Shown piece by piece: positions 3,913-35,800 of a DNA stretch of 64,000 bases. A model generated the notes under the pieces. That model was not told the DNA's origin and did no database searches. It was given only the letters and a program-made list of their open reading frames with translations. Source of the DNA: Clostridia bacterium (GTDB lineage: Bacteria; Bacillota; Clostridia; Christensenellales; QALW01); assembly GCA_017502165.1 (NCBI GenBank), contig JAFVVO010000025.1, forward strand, positions 8,854 through 72,853, read 5' to 3'. The position numbers were made by a program, and so were the translations under genes. Position 1 is the stretch's first letter. Every line of letters begins with the position of its first letter.

Positions 3913-3988
3913 GCTACCGTGGCTCAGTCGGCAGAGCGGTTCACTCGTAATGAACAGGTCGCCGGTTCGATTCCGGCCGGTAGCTCCA
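3913..3988 (+). tRNA. tRNA-Thr (anticodon CGT)
   Basis: A cloverleaf was drawn by hand. Acceptor GCTACCG/CGGTAGC, anticodon stem GTTCA/TGAAC with loop CTCGTAA, T-arm GGTTCGATTCC, CCA encoded. Confidence 0.9.
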
Positions 3989-3997
3989 ACAAAATAC

Positions 3998-4084
3998 GCC
4001 GGTGTGTTGGAACTGGCAGACGAGACGGACTCAAAATCCGTTGTCAGCGATGGCGTGTGGGTTCGAGTCCCACCACCGGCACCA
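3998..4084 (+). tRNA. tRNA-Leu (anticodon CAA), type II with long variable arm
   Basis: Acceptor GCCGGTG/CACCGGC, anticodon stem ACGGA/TCCGT with loop CTCAAAA, long variable arm, T-arm GTGGGTTCGAGTCCCAC, CCA encoded. Confidence 0.9.
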
Positions 4085-4243
4085 CGTCGCCGCAAGCTAA
4101 AAAAGGCTTGCGGCATTTTTTTGTCAAAAAAACCGCAATGCCTTTGGCGCTGCGTCTCCTTATACGCAAAAAGTCTCGCTCGGCTCATCTGCTCGGTTGC
4201 AAGCGCCCTCACGACGATTCACTGTCGCTACCAACTTTTTGCG
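4085..4243 (+). repeat. Module X: conserved non-coding module, repeated in inverted orientation at 19129-19288
   Basis: Roughly 90 percent identity by eye to the reverse complement of 19129-19288. It begins with a terminator hairpin and contains a 10-bp stem (CGCAAAAAGT with ACTTTTTGCG) enclosing about 57 nt. Confidence 0.8.
4089..4122 (+). terminator. Intrinsic terminator after tRNA-Leu(CAA)
   Basis: GCCGCAAGC ... GCTTGCGGC hairpin followed by a T7 run. Confidence 0.7.
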
Positions 4244-4254
4244 TTAGCGTGTTA

Positions 4255-4282
4255 AGCAGACAAGTAGTCTGCTCTTTTTTTA
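4255..4282 (+). terminator. Intrinsic terminator-like hairpin between modules X and Y
   Basis: AGCAGAC aagta GTCTGCT followed by CTTTTTTT. Confidence 0.55.
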
Positions 4283-4301
4283 TTTAAGAACGGAGAGAAA
4301 A

Positions 4302-4551
4302 AACGGGGTCCCCGAAAAGCAGTATTGCTTTTTGGGGAAAAGGAAGCACAATGGAGCGATTTAGCTTTCTTGTAAAACAAGAAAGCGCTTAAGCGTAATT
4401 TGTGCTGACGCGGGACTCGAAGCCTGAGAGGGAGCAAAGCGTTAAGAAAACGATTGATAATCGTTTTCAGCTTTGCTGTGCGAGACGGGTACTGCGAGCA
4501 TTACGGAGTAAGCGGAGCGGTCGTTGAGCAGGTAAGGCGCGAAGCGACTGT
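4302..4551 (+). ncRNA. Module Y: candidate structured RNA or repeat element of unknown class, second copy at 19306-19560 (minus strand)
   Basis: About 250 nt and about 88 percent identical to the other copy. It has a 12-bp hairpin (4310-4337), a 9-bp hairpin GCTTTCTTG/CAAGAAAGC and nested stems AGCAAAGC/GCTTTGCT and AAAACGAT/ATCGTTTT. Differences between the copies keep the pairing: G-U versus A-U at 4314, C-G versus U-A at 4418/4426, and G-U versus G-C at 4519/4549. Confidence 0.5.
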
Positions 4552-4569
4552 GTCCCACCACCGGCACCA
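4552..4569 (+). repeat. Exact 18-nt duplicate of the 3' end of tRNA-Leu(CAA) (equals 4067-4084)
   Basis: GTCCCACCACCGGCACCA occurs at 4067-4084 (T-loop end to CCA) and again at 4552-4569. Confidence 0.95.
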
Positions 4570-4602
4570 AAAAATCGACAGGTTTCGACCTGTCGATTTT
4601 TT
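4570..4602 (+). terminator. Intrinsic terminator after the duplicated tRNA 3' end
   Basis: ATCGACAGG tttcga CCTGTCGAT followed by a T6 run. Confidence 0.65.
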
Positions 4603-4604
4603 AT

Positions 4605-4780
4605 CCATTGCGAAAGCAATGGTATATCATCACGCGCAAGCGTGCATCTCATCACCGAAGGTGTATATCATCAGCCGCAGGCTGCATTTCTTTTCGCAAT
4701 GATGATATGCAAAACTTCGTTTTGATGATATGCAATTCCTGCGGAATTGATGATATACACGGCTTTCGCCGTGATTTATG
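4605..4780 (+). other. Array of seven short hairpins separated by an inverted 9-11 nt arm motif (TATATCATCA / TGATGATAT)
   Basis: Hairpins lie at 4605-4622 (GAAA loop), 4631-4644 (GCAA loop), 4653-4663, 4672-4684, 4710-4724, 4733-4749 and 4759-4772. Arms lie at 4622-4632, 4645-4654 and 4664-4673 (one sense) and 4700-4709, 4723-4732 and 4748-4758 (reverse complement). Confidence 0.6.
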
Positions 4781-4833
4781 TAAGAGTTCGAATTCATACG
4801 CAAAAACATCTTTTTTGTAGCCCATAGACATAA

Positions 4834-4864
4834 CAAAAAAACAGACTAAGGGTCTGTTTTTTGT
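4834..4864. terminator. Bidirectional terminator-like hairpin, similar to the one at 19099-19120
   Basis: A-run, CAGAC taagg GTCTG, T-run. Nearly the same sequence (AACAAAAAAACAGACcaacGGTCTG) occurs at 19093-19118. Confidence 0.5.
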
Positions 4865-4869
4865 TATTT

Positions 4870-4922
4870 TGGGGGAAGGAAGGGACTTGACCACAAACCG
4901 TTAAAAAAACGATTGATAATCA
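4870..4922. repeat. Degenerate third fragment: reverse-complement tRNA 3'-half-like sequence plus a partial module-Y core
   Basis: TGGGGGAAGGAAGGGACTTGACC resembles the reverse complement of the tRNA-Leu(AAG) 3' end (TGGTGCGAATGAAGGGACTTGAACC). CGTTAAAAAAACGATTGATAATC repeats the Y core seen at 4440-4466. Confidence 0.45.
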
Positions 4923-5008
4923 TCAGTGCTTTCTATAACTCTCAAATTGACTTTTTATGCGCATTATAATATAATACTTTACAGAATAATCAGTTAAGGA
5001 ATACTCTA

Positions 5009-9346: not shown

Positions 9347-9865
9347 TTATTTTATTTGCAATAGCTTTTTTGCGTATTCAAACAACTTTATTGCGGGGAT
9401 AGTTAAAAAACCCCAAACAAAATTGCTTACGCCGTGGATAGCGTCAAATCCAAGACCGCGAAGCATCCAAACAATCCAACCGTTTACGTCAAGCCCCGAA
9501 AACAATGCTTCCGCAGGGGAATAAAGGATTCCGAACAAAAACCCGTGCAAAGCGGAAATACAAGCGTAAACAAAAGGCTTGACCTTCTCGGGAAGGGTTT
9601 TGGGTAAAAGCATAGTTAAACCCCAAAGAGGCGCCCAGATGTAAAGGTATGGAATCCACCAGACGTTAAAACCTGAAAATACGCCTTCAAGAAAAACGTA
9701 AACGTAAATGGGGTATAATGCCTTAAAGCGAAACACCACCGTCATAGCAACGATGAGCACGCCGTTTAAGTGTACGTTTGGGAGAAATTCCATCATCAGC
9801 TGAAGAACGTACATCAAGCCTCCAAGTAAGCCGAACAGTACAATTTCCCGAACGTTTATTTTCAT
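9347..9865 (-). CDS. Small polytopic membrane protein, ECF S-component-like; putative corrinoid transporter component
   Basis: 172 aa with 5-6 TM segments. It overlaps the upstream DUF4430 gene (ATGA) and lies behind a cobalamin riboswitch. Confidence 0.5.
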   Translation of the reverse strand: MKINVREIVLFGLLGGLMYVLQLMMEFLPNVHLNGVLIVAMTVVFRFKALYPIYVYVFLEGVFSGFNVWWIPYLYIWAPLWGLTMLLPKTLPEKVKPFVYACISALHGFLFGILYSPAEALFSGLDVNGWIVWMLRGLGFDAIHGVSNFVWGFLTIPAIKLFEYAKKLLQIK

Positions 9866-10293
9866 GCCTTCTCCGCCTTAAAGGTGTAGGTTTTATCTGC
9901 CTCAATGCTTGTTGAGTCTGCGCCTGAGGAAGCATATCCGCCGTCAACGTAGAATGACCAGTAGGCCTTATCGGCATCATAATCAAGAGTTTTTCCGTTA
10001 ACCGATTTAACGTATAAGCCGAATTGCTCAGAATCACCTGCAATAATTTCGGCGTCTAACAGAGCTTCGCCAACGGTAGCCTTGTCGGTTTTTACGGTAA
10101 CCTTGGTCTCGTTGCCCGATAGGTCAATAACGGAAAACGCAAATTCCGTTGCGCCTACGCCGTAGGTTTCGCCGTCTGTCAGAGTAATGGTGGAATATTT
10201 GTTGTCTTGACAACCTGAGAAAAGTGCCATAGCCGCAATAAGCACAATACAAAGGCATAAAGACAGTAACTTGGTAGCATTTGTCTTTTTCAT
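9862..10293 (-). CDS. DUF4430 domain lipoprotein (transcobalamin-like corrinoid-binding fold)
   Basis: 143 aa with lipobox LFSGC. The sequence pattern is typical of DUF4430. It is the first gene after the cobalamin riboswitch. Confidence 0.7.
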   Translation of the reverse strand: MKKTNATKLLSLCLCIVLIAAMALFSGCQDNKYSTITLTDGETYGVGATEFAFSVIDLSGNETKVTVKTDKATVGEALLDAEIIAGDSEQFGLYVKSVNGKTLDYDADKAYWSFYVDGGYASSGADSTSIEADKTYTFKAEKA

Positions 10294-10334: not shown

Positions 10335-10535
10335 CAAAATCGGCGCTCGCGATTATTTTCTTAAGGCTGACACAAGAAAAGTATTTCGACTCTATGCATA
10401 TCCGTTCAGGATGCGTTTTTCGCCTTCTCGGAATTTTCCAATGGCTTGTCCCTTGCTTGCGGCGCAAGGTAGAAAAACGCGTTTAGCATATCACGGCGAC
10501 GGGCTCGTGCAGGATTTTCACCTGCTTCCGTTTCT
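10335..10535 (-). promoter_or_regulatory. Cobalamin (B12) riboswitch
   Basis: The minus strand reads GGAAGCAGGTGAAAATCCTGCACGAGCCCGTCGCCGTGA ... AGCCATTGGAAAATTCCGAGAAGGCG. This matches the conserved GGTGAAAATCC / CCCGCCACTGT core and the B12-box region. It lies in the 5' leader of 10293..9347. Confidence 0.75.
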
Positions 10536-10575
10536 TGTGCAAAAATAGTTTATCATATTTGCTTTTTTAATGCAA

Positions 10576-10599
10576 CAAAAAACCCCGCTTTTGCGGGGC
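10576..10599 (-). terminator. Intrinsic terminator of the isomerase gene
   Basis: CCCCGCaaaaGCGGGG followed by a T-run on the minus strand. Confidence 0.7.
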
Positions 10600-18984: not shown

Positions 18985-19098
18985 ATACTCACCGCCTTTT
19001 TATATTACAATCATTATATCAGAAAATGCAGAGCAAATCAATTATCTATCAAAAATTTTGTGGAATAAATAGTGGATAATGGAAACAAGGTATAACAA

Positions 19099-19120
19099 AA
19101 AAACAGACCAACGGTCTGCT
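19099..19120 (-). terminator. Terminator-like hairpin following module X' (minus strand)
   Basis: The minus strand reads CAGACCgttGGTCTG followed by T7. Confidence 0.5.
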
Positions 19121-19128
19121 GAAGCGAT

Positions 19129-19288
19129 CGCAAAAAGTTGGTAGCGACTGTGAATCGTCGTGAGGGCGCTTGCAACCGAACAGATGAGCCGAGCGTGACT
19201 TTTTGCGAAAAAGGAGACGCAGCGCCAAAGGTATTGCGGTATTTTTTGATAAAAAATGCCGCAAGCCTTTTTTAGCTTGCGGCGACGA
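19129..19288 (-). repeat. Module X' (inverted copy of 4085-4243)
   Basis: The reverse complement aligns end to end with 4085-4243, including the GCCGCAAGC/GCTTGCGGC terminator. Confidence 0.8.
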
Positions 19289-19305
19289 GGTGCGAATGAA
19301 GGGAC
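19289..19305 (-). repeat. Exact 17-nt duplicate of the 3' end of tRNA-Leu(AAG) (equals 19605-19621)
   Basis: GGTGCGAATGAAGGGAC occurs at both positions. Confidence 0.95.
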
Positions 19306-19560
19306 ACGGTCGCTACGCGCCCTAACTGCTCAACGACCGCTCCGCTTACTTCGTAATGCTCGCAGTACCCGTTTCGCACAGCAAAGCTAAAAACGATTAT
19401 CAATCGTTTTATTAACGCTTTGCTCCCACTTTGGCTTCAAGTCCCGCGTCAGCACAAATTTCGCTCATACGCTTTCTTGAAAACAAGAAAGCTAAATCAC
19501 TCCATTGTGCTTCCTTTTCCCCAAAAAGCAATTCTGCTTTTTGGGGACCCCGTTTATTTT
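19306..19560 (-). ncRNA. Module Y' (second copy of the candidate structured element)
   Basis: The reverse complement aligns with 4302-4551. The stems are preserved. Confidence 0.5.
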
Positions 19561-19565
19561 AAATA

Positions 19566-19596
19566 ACAAAAAACCGAGCTCTTTTGAACTCGGTTT
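19566..19596 (-). terminator. Intrinsic terminator after tRNA-Leu(AAG)
   Basis: The minus strand reads AACCGAGttcaaaagaGCTCGGTT followed by TTTTTG. Confidence 0.65.
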
Positions 19597-19603
19597 TCTG
19601 TTA

Positions 19604-19688
19604 TGGTGCGAATGAAGGGACTTGAACCCTTACGTCTGTTGACACATGATCCTTAGTCATGCCTGTCTGCCAATTCCAGCACACTCGC
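19604..19688 (-). tRNA. tRNA-Leu with anticodon AAG (A34), type II
   Basis: The hand-folded sequence is GCGAGTG TG CTG GAATTGGCAGA CAG G CATGA CTAAGGA TCATG, a 13-nt variable arm, AAGGG TTCAAGT CCCTT CATTCGC A CCA. Confidence 0.85.
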
Positions 19689-20520: not shown

Positions 20521-22929
20521 TTACTCGTTTCCGCTTGAAGCGGGTGTTGTCTCGGGTGTGGGAGTTGCCTCTCCGTCGGGAGCGGGTGCTGTCTCGGGAG
20601 TTGGCGTTGCTTCGGGTGTGGGTGTTGCCTCACCGTCGGGAGTAGGTGTTGGCTCTCCGTCGGGAGTAGGTGTTGGCTCTCCGTCGGGAGTAGGTGTTGC
20701 TTCGCCGTCGGGTGTAGGCGTTGCTTCGCCGTCGGGAGTAGGCGTTGCTTCGCCGTCGGGCGTAGGCGTTGCTTCACCGTCGGGTGTAGGTGTTGCTTCG
20801 CCGTCGGGAGCAGGTGTTACTGCGGGGGTAGGCTTAGCGGTGGGAGTAGGTGTAACGTCGGGGACAGGTGTTTTCCAATCGGGATTAACAACCGCAGGAG
20901 GAGTTGTTGCAGGCGCTCCTGAAGGATTGTATGCGGAATTAGTTCTGTTAGCGTCAACCATTTCCTTTAATTTAGCATCACCGTCAAGAGCCATATCTGT
21001 CCAGCCGTTTTTGGTAAAATGCTGATATTTTAATGCGTTAAGATTAATTCGCGCCAAAACCACGCCGGAATCACTGGTGGTGTGGTAATAGAGCCAGCCT
21101 CCAGCCTGAGAAAGCTCACTGCAAAGAATGTCACTTGAGAGCTTTGCGGGCGTCGCAATAGTTTTGAATTTAACGTAAAGAGAATTTGCGTCTGTTTCGC
21201 TGGTGTAAATCAAATAACGTGTGCCTGCCTGAATGTGATTGTATGCAGCGGGAATAATAGTAGTTGCGGCGGCTTCGTTAAGGCTGATAAGGGGAAGAGT
21301 AAGGCAATGCTTGTCGCTGTAATAACGGCGGTAGCAAAGGTTGTTTTCGTACATAAAGGGGCGGTCAACACGGGAAGAGAGAAGTCTTTGGGATTTTTCG
21401 GTAGTAATGTCGAAACGGTAAAGACGTTCTGCGTTCACGCGTGCGTCCTGCGTATAATAGAAGCTTCCCTTATAGAAGAACAGATGAGAAATATCTCTTG
21501 CCAAAATAGGCTGACGGTTTGATCCGTCCTTTTTTATTTTGAATAAATTGTTCTTATTAAGCGTGTTTGCAAAATATATCCAGTCATTGATAACTAAAAC
21601 GTAGGCGCTGGTGTCAACGGTTGTAACCGTTACGGGCGCGCCCCCTGAAACCGAAACCTTGGTTAAGTGGCCTGCACTGTCAAGATTACTGTAATAAAGG
21701 TATCCGTCGGAATAGTTGAGGTTTGCCGCCTTATGACTTGAAATAAGCGTCACGCTGCTTCCGTCGGGGCGCGATTTGAAGATTTTACCGCCGTTTGTTC
21801 GGTCGATATAATATAACCAGTTGCCTACCTGGCAGGCAATGGAATTGTTCTGAGCGTTAAAGGCGTTAGTGCCTAAAGCGTAAAAGGCCTGATAAGAATT
21901 TTCCGCGTTAGCCTCCAAGGAAAATAAATCTGCAATAATCAGCGGATCGTAATTGCTCATACGGGTGTATTTTGGGTCCTTGGAAAAGCTCTTATAACGA
22001 ATTGCGTCACCGTTGCGGACCTCAACGTGAATGTGGGTGTCGCCTGCAGGGTCGCCCGCGCTTCCGCCAAAGCCTAAAAGGTCACCTTTTTTAACTGTGC
22101 CGCCGCTTGTTACAAGCTGTCTTGCAGGGGCAATATCCTGCCCGTGAAGAATAAGCACCGTAAGGTTATATTCCTTAGAATAAATGGCAATAGTATTGTA
22201 ATCGTCGGAATTAAGAACCGTTAAGGTGCCGTCAATGGGCGAGTAGAAGGGACGGTTTTCCTGAGTGTTGAAATCGGTTGCGGTGTGAATATAATTTTCC
22301 AAAATTCCCGCAGTAGAGGAGTGCTTAGTTAAAAAGCCCTGAATAATGCTTCCGTAATCCTTGCCGAAATAGGATTTATCGTTGGTTTTGAACAGGTTTG
22401 AAGCAAGGCGGACGGCTCTGTCGTCCTCTTGATTGGGATTTTGAGCGTTATAGAAGGTAAGGTCGTCGTATTGGTCGGCATTGCTGAGACCGTAAATAAT
22501 GCCGGGAATATAATCGAATTTTGCGTATGCAAGCACCTTGCCGTCCTCGGTGGTGGATACTACGGCAATCCTGCGGCAGTCGGTGCCGGAAATAACAGCG
22601 CCCTTTTCGATTTTAGTCCAGGAAGAAGCGTCAAAGCCGGGCGCAAAATCTTCAAACTGACCGTTTGCACCGTAAACCTTGTATCTGAAAGTGCCTTCAA
22701 TGTTAGCGTCGAAAATAACGTCGCCTACGCCGTAGGGCGCTTGGCTTGCTCCGTAAAGAAGCATACCGTCGGAGAAAAATACCTCTTGCTTTTCCTCCTG
22801 AGGCTTGTCCGTTAAATCGGGCAAAACGGGAGCCTTAAATCTGTCCCAGGGCAAGAATATGGCGGTTACGGTCAGGGCGAGAATGAGTATTAAAGCCGTT
22901 ACAACCGTAGGAAAATATTTTTTAAGCAT
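20521..22929 (-). CDS. Membrane-anchored M23 peptidase with DUF5050-like beta-propeller repeats and a C-terminal Pro/Thr-rich tandem repeat
   Basis: N-terminal TM segment. The M23 motif is GDTHIHVEV. YY-rich propeller repeats follow, then about 9 copies of TPTPDGEA. Confidence 0.7.
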   Translation of the reverse strand: MLKKYFPTVVTALILILALTVTAIFLPWDRFKAPVLPDLTDKPQEEKQEVFFSDGMLLYGASQAPYGVGDVIFDANIEGTFRYKVYGANGQFEDFAPGFDASSWTKIEKGAVISGTDCRRIAVVSTTEDGKVLAYAKFDYIPGIIYGLSNADQYDDLTFYNAQNPNQEDDRAVRLASNLFKTNDKSYFGKDYGSIIQGFLTKHSSTAGILENYIHTATDFNTQENRPFYSPIDGTLTVLNSDDYNTIAIYSKEYNLTVLILHGQDIAPARQLVTSGGTVKKGDLLGFGGSAGDPAGDTHIHVEVRNGDAIRYKSFSKDPKYTRMSNYDPLIIADLFSLEANAENSYQAFYALGTNAFNAQNNSIACQVGNWLYYIDRTNGGKIFKSRPDGSSVTLISSHKAANLNYSDGYLYYSNLDSAGHLTKVSVSGGAPVTVTTVDTSAYVLVINDWIYFANTLNKNNLFKIKKDGSNRQPILARDISHLFFYKGSFYYTQDARVNAERLYRFDITTEKSQRLLSSRVDRPFMYENNLCYRRYYSDKHCLTLPLISLNEAAATTIIPAAYNHIQAGTRYLIYTSETDANSLYVKFKTIATPAKLSSDILCSELSQAGGWLYYHTTSDSGVVLARINLNALKYQHFTKNGWTDMALDGDAKLKEMVDANRTNSAYNPSGAPATTPPAVVNPDWKTPVPDVTPTPTAKPTPAVTPAPDGEATPTPDGEATPTPDGEATPTPDGEATPTPDGEATPTPDGEPTPTPDGEPTPTPDGEATPTPEATPTPETAPAPDGEATPTPETTPASSGNE
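20560..20830. repeat. 24-bp in-frame tandem repeat (coding, TPTPDGEA units)
   Basis: The unit CCGTCGGGAGTAGGTGTTGCTTCG recurs about 9-10 times with point variants. Confidence 0.85.
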
Positions 22930-32872: not shown

Positions 32873-35800
32873 TTGGCAGATAAACAGAATAATTCAAGCT
32901 TTGAAGTTACGTCGGTATCAACCGGACAAAAGATAAAACCGCAGGTTCCTGCTGAAAGAACGGCCGGTGCAACGCGAAAAGCAACTCGTGCAGGAGCCAC
33001 CCGTACAAACGCACCGCGCACAAGTGAGAGCACTCATCCAACTCGCGCAAGCATAGGCGTTGAGTCGGTGCGTCCTGCAAGAGAAAGCGCGTCAAGAGCA
33101 TCAGGAGCAAGAGCAGGTGAAGCCCGTTCAACTTTAACGGGGGAAAGACGTTCAAATGTAACCGGCGAAGCCCGTCCAACTCGCGCAAGCATAGGTGTTG
33201 AGTCGGTGCGCCCTGCAAGAGAAAGCGCTTCAAGAGTAGCAGGAGCAAGAACCGGAGAAGCCCGTCCGGCCCGCGCAAGCGTAGGTGTTGAGTCGGTGCG
33301 CCCTGCAAGAGAAGGTGCGTCAAGAGCAGCGGGAGTAAGAGTAAGTGAAAATGACGGACAAGCAAAGAAAAGAGAGTCTGTTCGTCAAGCAAGCCAAGGA
33401 CCTCGAACAAACGGTGCAGGAGGACAAATCAGCGCTGAAGAAAGAGTGCGTGCAACGGTTGGCGTTGAAACGGTGCGCCCGAGAAGAGAAGGCTCTTTGC
33501 AAAATACTGACGAAAGGTCAGGTAACGGCCAAGCTGCAGTCCGCCGCCGCAGGATAGCGGATAACAGCGGTAATCAGTATCGGCAGGACAGAGAGCAGGA
33601 GAGAATAGAGAAAATCCGCGACGAAAAGCAAAAAGAAAGATATATGCGTCGCAAGGAGATAGAAGAGGCTTCGGCAATTTTTACTAAGAGTGATAAGCCT
33701 CGCAACTACTTTATCAACCTGATGATAGTTACCTTCAAGATGCTTCTTGTTTGTATGCTTATTGTGGGAATTTCGGGAGTAGGATTTATAATCGGTATGG
33801 CACAGTCATATCTTGAAAGCGTGCCTGAGCTTGACTTTGACAGCGTTGCCGAGCAGGAGCAAGCCACCGTTTTGCTTGACAATAAGGGGGAAACCCTCGG
33901 TAACTACTACAATATGGAAAATCGTGAATGGGCTGATTTGGAGGAAATTCCTGCAGATTTACAAAATGCGGTTATCGCCATTGAGGACGTGCGCTTCCAC
34001 AGACACATGGGCATTGACTTTAAGCGCCTTGTAGGTGCAGTGTTCAGCAACCTTACAAGCGATTCTATGCAGGGCGGCTCAACCATTACTCAGCAGCTTG
34101 TGAAAAACACGATGCTTTCCTTTGACCAGACGTATAAGAGAAAAATTCAGGAAGCGTCCCTTGCCATTGAGCTTGAGCAGAAGTATGAAAAGGACGATAT
34201 TTTAGAGGCGTACCTTAATACCATTTATATGGGAGGCTCCTGCTACGGCGTGAAAACTGCCGCAAAGGACTATTTCGGCAAGGAATTAAGCGAGCTTACG
34301 CTTCGTGAGTGCGCCTGCCTTGCAGGTATGATTCAGAACCCCTCAAGATATAATCCCAGAACTAACTATTATAGCCGTAACAATCCTGCAAGAACCGATA
34401 ACAGAACGAATCTTGTTCTTTATGAAATGTGGGAAAACGGTCTTATTTCAAAGGAGACATACGAATCAGCCAAGGCGGATACCATCTCCGTTTTGAAGGA
34501 TTCTCCATATTCAACCAAATCGGGAATGGTTTACTTTACCGATTACGTTATTGATAGCGTGGTTGAGCAGATTTTAATTGACAGAGGTCTTGAGAACAAC
34601 TCTAAAAACAGAAATCAGGTGCGCAAGGAAATCCGTACCGAAGGCTACACCATCTATACAACTATGGATGAGGATAAGCAGCGCGCCGCAGAAGAGCAGA
34701 CGTATAATTTCAAGGGCTATCCCACAATGAGATATTCTGCCGATAGCTATACCGTTGTAGGCAGAAACCCTGACGGAAGTGTTATCCGTCTTGTTCAGCC
34801 TCAGGCGGCGGTAGCGGTTATGGATTATCATAACGGTTATATCGTTGCCCTTGTTGGCGGTCGTCAGGCACCCACGGGAAGCCTGGAATTTAACCGTTCC
34901 TATCAGTCTACAATGCCCGTTGGCTCCTCAATTAAGCCTATTGCCGTTTACGCTCCCGCCATTGAGCGCGGCTCAGGCATCGGCACGGTTTATTACGACC
35001 AGAAAATTAAAATTGACGGTTGGGGCTCTGTTAAGGGTTATCCTGAAAATAACAGCCGAACATACGCCGGCTGGGTAACCATGAAGGAATCCTTTACCCG
35101 TTCCCTTAACACCGGTGCGGCTCAGGCTTTGCTTTATGACGTGGGACTTGATGAATCCTTCAACACCCTCGTTTCCTTAGGCGTTGACCCTGATCACATC
35201 AGTAAAACCGGCTCAGGTCTTGCACTTGGAAGCTCTGGCATAACACCCTTAGAGATGGCAGGAGCATTTTCCGCCATTGCCAATATGGGCGTATACATTG
35301 AGCCCATTGCCTTTACCAAGGTGGTAGATAAAACCGGCAACGTTATCGTTGATATGGTTGCCCGTCAGGACAGACACAGAGTTTTCTCCGAGAGCACCGC
35401 TTGGCAGACCACTTATTTAATGCGTCAGGTTGCTCTTGGCTTGCCCACAAGAATTAAGGTTCCCGGACAGACCGTTTACGGTAAAACGGGTACTAACTCT
35501 GAGCAGAGAGGCGTTTTCTTTGCAGGCTTTACGGGCTATTACACCTGCTGTGTTTGGGTTGGCTCCGACGCTTATAAGCAGCTTCAGAGCAACGCGCAGG
35601 GTAGCTCCTTTGCGGCACCCTTGTTCAGCGCCGTTATGACGGCTCTTCATAAGGGACTTCCCGATAAACCCAATTCCGACGTTGAGCCTGAGGCAATTGG
35701 CGTAATGAAAGTAAATTATTGCTCCGTTACGGGTAAGTTGGCAACTGAAGCCTGCGCAAAAACTCACGTGGCTTACGGAAACCCCTCAAATATGAGCGTT

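Follow-up and report, generated by a model that had tools for sequence, protein, structure and literature searches.

In Dehalococcoides, genomic islands at the ssrA gene use the large serine recombinase DsiB, and their repeat runs from midway along the T-loop to the 3' end of the gene, with a conserved motif just upstream of it (PMC3146451). These islands are stacked downstream of ssrA, and some of them have no integration genes (PMC3146451). For the Firmicutes, cis-mobilizable elements (CIMEs) have been reviewed, which have lost their integration and transfer genes and have kept both flanking sites; an element can decay to such a remnant, after which a newcomer enters the far repeat by site-specific accretion at tRNA genes (PMC5704250). 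The same review lists NBU1, a tyrosine-integrase element at the 3' end of a tRNA-Leu gene (PMC5704250, Table 1). Here I describe a related arrangement in a 64-kb stretch of the Clostridia bacterium assembly GCA_017502165.1 (contig JAFVVO010000025.1, positions 8,854 to 72,853; hereafter the window), in which two non-coding modules, X and Y, together with a copy of the tRNA 3' end, lie behind each of two tRNA-Leu genes. These loci are most probably scars of tRNA-end-specific integrative elements that accumulated by accretion, an ordinary kind of feature built here from X and Y sequences that were previously undescribed.

Two tRNA-Leu loci with copies of their own ends

According to ARAGORN and Rfam, the window has three tRNA genes in total: tRNA-Thr(CGT) (3913-3988) and tRNA-Leu(CAA) (3998-4084; Rfam tRNA, 50.7 bits) on the plus strand, and tRNA-Leu(AAG) (19604-19688) on the minus strand. 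Both tRNA-Leu genes are intact, and each has a copy of its own end a few hundred bases downstream. An exact-match search finds the end of tRNA-Leu(CAA), GTCCCACCACCGGCACCA, exactly twice in the window, at the gene itself (4067-4084, tRNA positions 59-76) and as an 18-nt copy at 4552-4569 on the same strand. The end of tRNA-Leu(AAG), GTCCCTTCATTCGCACC, is likewise found exactly twice, at the gene (19621-19605) and as a 17-nt copy of positions 59-75 at 19305-19289 on the minus strand, where the 18th base is T, compared to A76 in the tRNA. Neither sequence has additional matches in the window with up to two mismatches, and neither occurs in any of 100 dinucleotide-preserving shuffles. These exact repeats, from midway along the T-loop to the CCA, are far beyond chance. 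The first base of either copy corresponds to tRNA position 59, which follows A58 in the T-loop, and the copies extend up to the CCA end. The two Leu ends have 13 of 18 bases in common, and the T-stems of the proximal copies pair perfectly within this species' own tRNAs, with a sequence that differs from the T-stem of a distant relative (L032, see below).

The two loci are about 15 kb apart in inverted relative orientation. Locus 1 consists of tRNA-Leu(CAA), X, a terminator, Y, the 18-nt copy and a terminator, while locus 2 consists of tRNA-Leu(AAG), a terminator, Y', the 17-nt copy, a T, X' and a terminator. An earlier note on this DNA had described these modules, the copies of the tRNA ends and the swapped order, and all of them are present, with the start of the copy at locus 1 corrected to 4552. 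The terminator that closes locus 1 (4570-4602, plus strand; an A-run, a hairpin at 4575-4596 and a T-run) is probably the original terminator of tRNA-Leu(CAA), because its layout equals that of the native terminator after tRNA-Leu(CAA) in L032 (2609-2650). At locus 2, the sequence and an alignment with a near-identical strain (L034) place TAACAG, a terminator hairpin (about 19598-19574) and TTTTTTGTTATTT between tRNA-Leu(AAG) and Y' (19561-19603, minus strand).

X (4085 to about 4290, plus strand) and X' (19287 to about 19095, minus strand) are 89% identical in alignment. The X core, CGTCG...TTTTTGCG(A), is about 160 nt long (4085-4248 as delimited by alignments and terminator scans) and starts directly after the CCA. 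Its 5' part is a hairpin with a T-run that is predicted by the terminator scans to end the tRNA transcript; the same hairpin (4089-4114) can be folded as a terminator for the opposite strand, by means of the subsequent A-run and a repeat of the first arm of its stem. A long region closed by the stem CGCAAAAAGT...ACTTTTTGCG follows, and then a CAGAC...GTCTG terminator with a T-run (4255-4281). Terminators of this type recur after X' (19120-19102, as CAGACC...GGTCTG), at 4836-4862, and after tRNA-Leu(AAG) in L034. The X' core (19287-19129) adjoins the duplicate tRNA end and not the tRNA itself. Across four copies of X, 8 of the 29 predicted base pairs show two-sided, compensatory changes.

Y (4296-4551, plus strand) and Y' (19560-19306, minus strand) are about 90% identical in alignment. 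Alignments and nhmmer divide Y into an A module (about 4303-4411), an M module (about 4412-4475) and a C module (about 4476-4551), which stand in the same order in Y'. The C module of Y ends with ...AGCGACTGT directly before the 18-nt copy, and a conserved ...AGCGACYGT stands directly 5' of the repeat in 3/3 full copies. The statement of the earlier note that Y ends in a copy of the 3' end of the neighbouring tRNA holds in all three of these (two in the window and one in L034). Apart from Y and Y', an nhmmer scan of the window detects only a partial third copy at 4826-4924 on the plus strand (E 2e-11), which consists of CATAAC, a CAGAC terminator and the start of an M module, and is homologous to positions 1141-1250 of L034. 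It contains an inverted fragment of the tRNA-Leu(AAG) type, TCAAGTCCCTTCcTTC.

Such inverted tRNA-Leu fragments are found at the start of the M module generally. The fragment in L034 is 17 nt long and is the reverse complement of tRNA-Leu positions 54-70; in the partial copy (4866-4890, with k-mer matches at 4879-4881) it is 16 nt long with one mismatch, and of the AAG type, although the partial copy is located at the CAA locus. The fragments in Y and Y' have 10 nt, GGGACTCGAA and GGGACTTGAA respectively, of which the former is the reverse complement of the T-loop and T-stem and the latter matches the AAG-type T-loop. A more remote contig (L035) has GGGGATTCGAACCC, which reads as a canonical T-arm in reverse complement. 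Y and Y' differ in this fragment by a single C/T exchange that tracks the G/A difference between the two T-loops, which is suggestive, though it concerns one base. I have no firm explanation for the inverted fragment, which might represent a second recombination site in inverted orientation, what is left of an inversion, or a segment for RNA pairing.

On the tRNA-sense strand Y folds as a string of hairpins with -107.5 kcal/mol (z -5.6), and on the other strand with -82.8 kcal/mol (z -4.1). Y and Y' show few differences, all one-sided changes preserve pairing, and the A module has two-sided compensatory changes in three pairs when the extra copies are included. The L034 variant has a 12-bp inverted pair that is itself tRNA-derived, and the equivalent long-range pairing in the window copies is 5 bp. 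The window copies of Y have no terminal inverted repeats.

Neither X nor Y has a conserved open reading frame (ORF), as start codons of one copy are missing in the other, and gene callers put no gene in them in public contigs. Concatenated open frames across X and Y scored nothing against a set of 5.8 billion proteins. No Rfam family, HEARO-type RNAs included, matches X or Y at the gathering threshold or at E <= 10, and neither module has a sigma-70-like promoter inside, although such promoters do precede the tRNA genes. In the window as a whole there is no integrase, recombinase, transposase, reverse transcriptase, retron-like gene, RNA-guided nuclease (TnpB, IscB, Cas) or IS110-type gene, no repeat of the long terminal repeat (LTR) type, and, among ORFs of at least 150 amino acids, no Resolvase or Recombinase domain.

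Empty sites and related sequences

The distant relative L032 (GCA_045594045.1), whose RadC is 65% identical, has RadC followed by tRNA-Leu(AAG) as well as the tRNA-Thr/tRNA-Leu(CAA) pair, and each tRNA-Leu gene has an A-run and a hairpin terminator directly behind it. As X, Y and the repeat are absent from both of these sites, both window loci are insertions relative to L032. In L034, where RadC is 98% identical, tRNA-Leu(AAG) is followed by a CAGACC terminator, a Y variant in which the modules are ordered M-A-C and which ends with ...GCGACCGT, and an 18-nt copy in full. What stands behind this copy in place of X' is a hairpin with short iterated repeats and a gene that is truncated, and the penicillin-binding-protein-like gene of the window is absent; the repeat therefore marks the boundary of strain-variable DNA. 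The A module of L034 is nearer to that of Y (90.6%), whereas its M and C modules are nearer to those of Y' (98-99%), from which it follows that the copies exchange sequence. The comparison of empty and occupied sites proposed in the earlier note thus finds both sites empty in L032 and, in L034, a Y variant and copy followed by different DNA. Most other contigs with identical neighbouring proteins come from the same strain and have the identical layout, and short-read contigs break at the borders of X, as expected of a repeat. The organism is present in the ENA entries ERZ27256864, ERZ28654893, ERZ28653969 and ERZ27229684 and in the runs SRR13872431, SRR31077499 and SRR12529277.

A 21-mer from the M module led to L035, a contig from a viral collection with three tandem large serine recombinase genes and an ORF of 253 amino acids. 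On the 3' side of these genes it has a conserved end, ...GGCTTTCGCA. A terminator comes next, and behind it a Y-like M-C piece reaches the contig edge; this piece lies outside the serine-recombinase element, beyond its end and a terminator. Homologues of the 253-amino-acid ORF gave X-like copies but no additional Y. In one of the contigs found in this way (L037), an X-like module starts exactly after the CCA of tRNA-Gly(CCC), as CCA|CGTCGG, so that the earlier observation that X directly follows a tRNA-type 3' end extends to another organism. In three others (L038-L040), an X-like module follows an element end sequence, which in L038 is that of a gene block containing ArdA, and is itself followed by a second copy of a 31-nt end. 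Exact-word scans of viral contigs for X gave chance matches only.

The 31-nt direct repeat, (G/A)TTCGGATATCTTTATTG(G/T)TCGGCTTTTGCA, flanks the X-like module in L038 (5108-5138 and 5303-5333) and equals the end of the neighbouring element. The same end is directly followed by a terminator in L035 and L037, and a degenerate form of the 31 nt stands behind the X-like module that follows tRNA-Gly in L037. A serine-recombinase element shared by L042 and L043 ends with ...CCTCCTTTGCCA (...TTTGCCA) and is followed by two different A-run/hairpin terminators, as if it had inserted at the CCA ends of two different RNA genes. This element carries four Resolvase/Recombinase ORFs and then ORFs of 247 and 271 amino acids, and its ends, ...CATCCTCCTTTGCCA, are at 7231 in L042 and 3947 in L043. 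These junctions indicate that these Clostridia have a group of elements whose insertion point, in a variety of tRNA genes, lies between the CCA and the terminator. From these alignments, X appears to be one tRNA-adjacent end module of this group. Among 17 distinct tRNA contexts in all the DNA that was fetched, a downstream copy of the tRNA end is present only at the Y-bearing Leu loci.

A near-identical block of genes (a 135-amino-acid ORF, an ArdA-like gene, a 247-amino-acid ORF and a YhcG-like nuclease) starts with CAAAGGAATAG in L038 (1-960) and L040 (1-780), which come from separate metagenomes. It starts directly after the CCA of tRNA-Asn(GTT) in the former and of tRNA-Trp(CCA) in the latter, and in both contigs it has no downstream copy of the tRNA end. 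L038 also contains two inverted partial copies of tRNA-Asn, TGTCGTTGGTTCAA (441-460 and 557-580), which cover about positions 45-58 and end at A58. They lie 120-240 nt downstream of tRNA-Asn in L038, and are found in L040 as well, beside tRNA-Trp. Genes for small four-helix-bundle '23S rRNA intervening sequence proteins' recur near tRNA or element ends (L037, 3371-3710; L032, 4293-4646; L043, 4127-4471); the one in L037 has an in-frame stop.

Origin of the modules and the repeats

With somewhat better than even confidence, I interpret X, Y and the repeats as gene-less, CIME-like remnants of elements that integrated at tRNA 3' ends and were built up by accretion. As in decayed tRNA-integrating elements, the insert is flanked by the target 3' end and a direct repeat in both window loci and in L034, no integration or transfer genes lie between the repeats, and the target sites are empty in the distant L032. 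Directly observed are the sequences at the junctions, the unoccupied sites, the variation between strains at the repeat, and the presence of X at other tRNA ends; from these I infer the following recombination events, enzymes and order of events. A Y-type element would have recombined with the tRNA gene in the T-loop, between positions 58 and 59, supplying a replacement tRNA 3' end with a terminator and displacing the original 3' end of the host, along with its native terminator, to a place beyond Y. Nearly all of this element would later have been lost, so that Y and the copy, with their T-loop-to-CCA junction, would represent the far end of a decayed T-loop-integrating element. X would be the near, tRNA-adjacent end of a second kind of element, which inserts at the CCA terminus, probably by means of a large serine recombinase like those in the related contigs. 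As its point of entry, this second element may have used the tRNA end proper at locus 1, but the duplicate that had been displaced at locus 2.

The swapped order (tRNA-X-Y-copy versus tRNA-Y-copy-X) would be due to this use of the true end at one locus and of the duplicate at the other, and needs no special property of Y. It fits accretion at a duplicate end (PMC5704250). The order Y'-copy-X' at locus 2 might also be likened to a junction of joined ends. The arms may be alike as two locus-specific lineages of one family or because one recombinase tolerates both Leu ends, and exchange between co-resident copies would keep them about 90% alike. The earlier note had argued that a conventional integrase, which needs one shared core, would not be expected to give perfect duplications of two different ends. 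This argument was too strong, since the distal copy would be the displaced host 3' end and would match the local tRNA by construction; it was also overstated in view of the bases that the two Leu ends share and of the same layout at the serine-recombinase islands of ssrA (PMC3146451). Undoing an inversion between the inverted copies of X or Y was considered by reasoning only, and was rejected as it does not simplify the layout.

Several observations weigh against an origin from decayed integrative elements. No parent element was found that carries a recombinase between X at one end and Y with the repeat at the other, nor any autonomous relative that has these ends together with a recombinase. 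Y is rare: when 185,579 species genomes, JGI metagenomes and viral contigs were scanned for exact words of Y, the matches were chance ones only, except for the 21-mer that led to L035, and blastn of X plus Y and of the X region of L038 gave no match in phage and plasmid collections. Host-matched cores carried by the element are required at two different tRNAs despite arms that are about 90% alike, and because both tRNA genes are intact, the 3' ends supplied by the element must match the species' own T-stems; duplication in situ explains the matched cores more simply. The left ends differ between copies (X in one case, TAAC and a terminator in the other), and the order of the modules within Y is A-M-C in the window, M-A-C in L034 and M-C in L035. 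In both L034 and L035, Y-like sequence follows an apparent native tRNA terminator, and Y could be a resident of tRNA trailers and not an element end. X-type junctions elsewhere have no tRNA repeat, so that separate modes of insertion have to be assumed for X and for Y. The Y-copy-X junction shows weak dyad symmetry, at 10-11 of 22 positions in loci that are not independent.

Of the alternatives, the one that survives best, though I consider it unlikely, is that Y with its leading terminator is a small non-autonomous element at Leu tRNA 3' ends which duplicates its target in place. If the cuts were staggered, one behind position 58 and the other close to position 76, fill-in would give a duplication of 17-18 bp in which both copies stem from the host, and the element would not have to carry a matching core. 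At both Leu genes and in L034, the repeat has the sequence of the local tRNA and a constant length of 17-18 nt, the proximal copy fits the T-stem of the species, which is not that of L032, the right end ...GCGACYGT is constant, and the left ends, X aside, are similar, with T(A/T)A(C/G), a terminator and TTGTTATTT. However, no bacterial transposase is known to give duplications of 17-18 bp at a fixed tRNA site. Moreover, no terminal inverted repeats were found, about three independent copies at two sites are known, the module order inside Y varies, and a repeat from midway along the T-loop to the 3' end already has an explanation in known recombinase systems (PMC3146451).

Two specific forms of insertion were tried and rejected: insertion of the IS200/IS605 type after TTCRA, for which there is no shared left-end hairpin, and a casposon-like duplication, for which there are no terminal inverted repeats and no Cas1.

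It is also rather unlikely that tRNA trailers contain X and Y as functional structured RNAs. In that case, X would be a compact RNA consisting of a two-way terminator and a stem-loop, and Y a read-through RNA with an antisense T-loop segment and a 3' tail that mimics an acceptor, serving for instance in tRNA-Leu processing or as a decoy. The fold of Y is far better than that of shuffled sequences on the tRNA-sense strand, the one-sided changes between Y and Y' all keep their pairs, and the compensatory changes (three pairs in the A module and eight in X) point the same way, albeit from few sequences with permuted modules. The motif GGGACT(C/T)GAA of the M module follows the T-loop base of the nearest tRNA in three of four copies, and, given the permutation of the Y modules and the Y-like sequence behind native-looking terminators in L034 and L035, Y could be a resident mosaic repeat or RNA. 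Against this, X and Y have terminators but no promoter inside and belong to no Rfam family, modules that are permuted or missing (A-M-C, M-A-C, M-C) are hard to square with one conserved fold, the tail has no 5' strand for an acceptor-like helix, the 12-bp long-range pairing of L034 shrinks to 5 bp in the window copies, and related genomes manage without both modules. A tRNA-like minihelix at the 3' end of Y was considered and rejected, as a complementary 5' strand is absent.

More improbable is that X and Y form a retargetable insertion system for tRNA ends, which copies the last 18 bases of the tRNA gene it enters or reads its target from a nucleic acid. As an alternative to copying, the target would be read through the 3' tail and the internal antisense T-loop segment. 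If this were true, the same arms could occupy different tRNA genes with perfectly matched junctions, and the gene blocks at the CCA of tRNA-Asn and tRNA-Trp would be part of the same behaviour.

The remaining explanations each fail a defining test. Very improbable is that Y is a guide-RNA scaffold, of the transposon-end or bridge-RNA kind, for an RNA-guided nuclease or recombinase encoded elsewhere, with the tRNA-derived 3' tail and the internal antisense segment specifying the target. A hairpin does stand directly before a 17-18-nt tail that has the same sequence as the target, TTCRA precedes this target in the tRNA, and one antisense and one sense target-derived segment occur in a single structured region. 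Yet the window has no TnpB, IscB, Cas or IS110-type gene and Y has no Rfam match of the HEARO type or otherwise, the modules do not keep a conserved order, paired subterminal hairpins as in IS200/IS605 are missing from the ends on the element side, and self-targeting of an essential tRNA gene would need a non-cutting effector. Equally improbable is that the loci arose from one segmental duplication, or by plain gene conversion, with the tRNAs diverging later. The loci do lie 15 kb apart in inverted orientation, X and Y are 89-90% identical between them, and copies do exchange sequence, as the mosaic in L034 indicates. However, the two tRNAs are different isoacceptors, both are present at the corresponding places in L032 without X or Y, the homology ends exactly at the module borders, and the module order differs between the loci. 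The empty L032 sites largely refute a segmental duplication, in agreement with the earlier note, which had taken the loci to be independent insertions.

Retroviral primer-binding sites are 17-18 nt long and run from after A58 to the CCA, like the copy, which on the opposite strand is complementary to the tRNA 3' end over about 18 nt. The suggestion that the copy primes reverse transcription of a retroelement from a tRNA is nevertheless the least credible of all, since the window has no reverse transcriptase, LTR, terminal repeats or retron-like gene, Y folds better on the tRNA-sense strand, T-loop integration yields the same boundaries (PMC3146451), and the copy matches the tRNA gene physically next to it, a match that is not needed for use as a primer and that points to a DNA-level junction.

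Other features of the window and comparison with described systems

The remainder of the window is ordinary chromosome, with genes for SecA, MetRS, RF-1, pyruvate formate-lyase, germination proteins of the GerA type and a nucleotidyltransferase of the CCA-adding type, and the host is a spore-forming member of the Clostridia. Directly behind locus 1, at 4603-4790, lies an array of short hairpins set apart by recurring handles, ATATCATCA three times and then its complement GATGATAT three times, which together form one long branched palindrome; Rfam places a sub-threshold Gut-1 RNA at 4619-4694 on the minus strand (32.3 bits against a cutoff of 50). An array of the same architecture with other handles (GAAATC / GATTTC) is located at 3170-3350 in L037, likewise between an element end and a tRNA. 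On the minus strand, 8-11 tandem 24-nt repeats (20540-20880) lie within an ORF of 802 amino acids (Peptidase_M23, DUF5050) next to RadC, and a cobalamin riboswitch aptamer (10360-10583; 40.3 bits, above the Rfam threshold) lies upstream of ORFs at 9347-10293. Three repeats of about 90 nt, 79-91% identical, are found at 33037-33355 in the N-terminal part of a transglycosylase/transpeptidase ORF of 1068 amino acids.

If the loci are indeed remnants of integrated elements, they are a routine but clean case of tRNA ends stacking element scars in poorly sampled gut Clostridia, and X and Y are two new non-coding end modules that could help to delimit such elements in metagenomes. Arms that are about 90% alike at two tRNA ends, and elements at the CCA of different tRNAs, bear on the change of target specificity. 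The significance would be greater if the copy of the target were made in place.

Mosaic intergenic repeats such as the pneumococcal BOX elements and the enterobacterial bacterial interspersed mosaic elements (BIMEs) likewise consist of short hairpin modules whose order and number vary and whose stems show compensatory changes. These families have tens to hundreds of dispersed copies without a tie to tRNA ends, whereas only tRNA-linked copies are seen here and every full Y ends in a tRNA-derived repeat. Elements with tyrosine integrases that integrate at tRNA genes show a like pattern of an intact RNA gene, an insert and a repeat. With elements of the NBU1 type, the window loci share the target at a tRNA-Leu 3' end and a short tRNA-end repeat that marks the far boundary. 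They differ in having no integrase gene and no recognisable arm-type sites, in the phylum of the host, and in that X and Y are unrelated to anything in the phage and plasmid collections.

The location of X' behind a duplicate tRNA end resembles the accretion described for CIMEs (PMC5704250). The CIMEs described so far, however, have identified parents among integrative conjugative or mobilizable elements, with known integrases, while the window modules have no known parent, are far smaller, and flank two different tRNA cores with the same arms. As in the Dehalococcoides ssrA islands, the repeat starts within the T-loop, at position 59 after A58, and a conserved ...AGCGACYGT is found upstream of it in 3/3 copies, with the C module of Y acting as the conserved upstream motif in the three full copies (PMC3146451). 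In contrast to those islands, the targets in the window are two tRNA-Leu genes and not the transfer-messenger RNA gene, the repeat is 17-18 nt long, and the inserts are 0.3-0.5 kb, gene-free and without a linked recombinase (PMC3146451). Among the window ORFs of at least 150 amino acids, no large serine recombinase module lies next to the gene-proximal boundary, and serine recombinases are found here only in the distantly related contigs L035 and L042.

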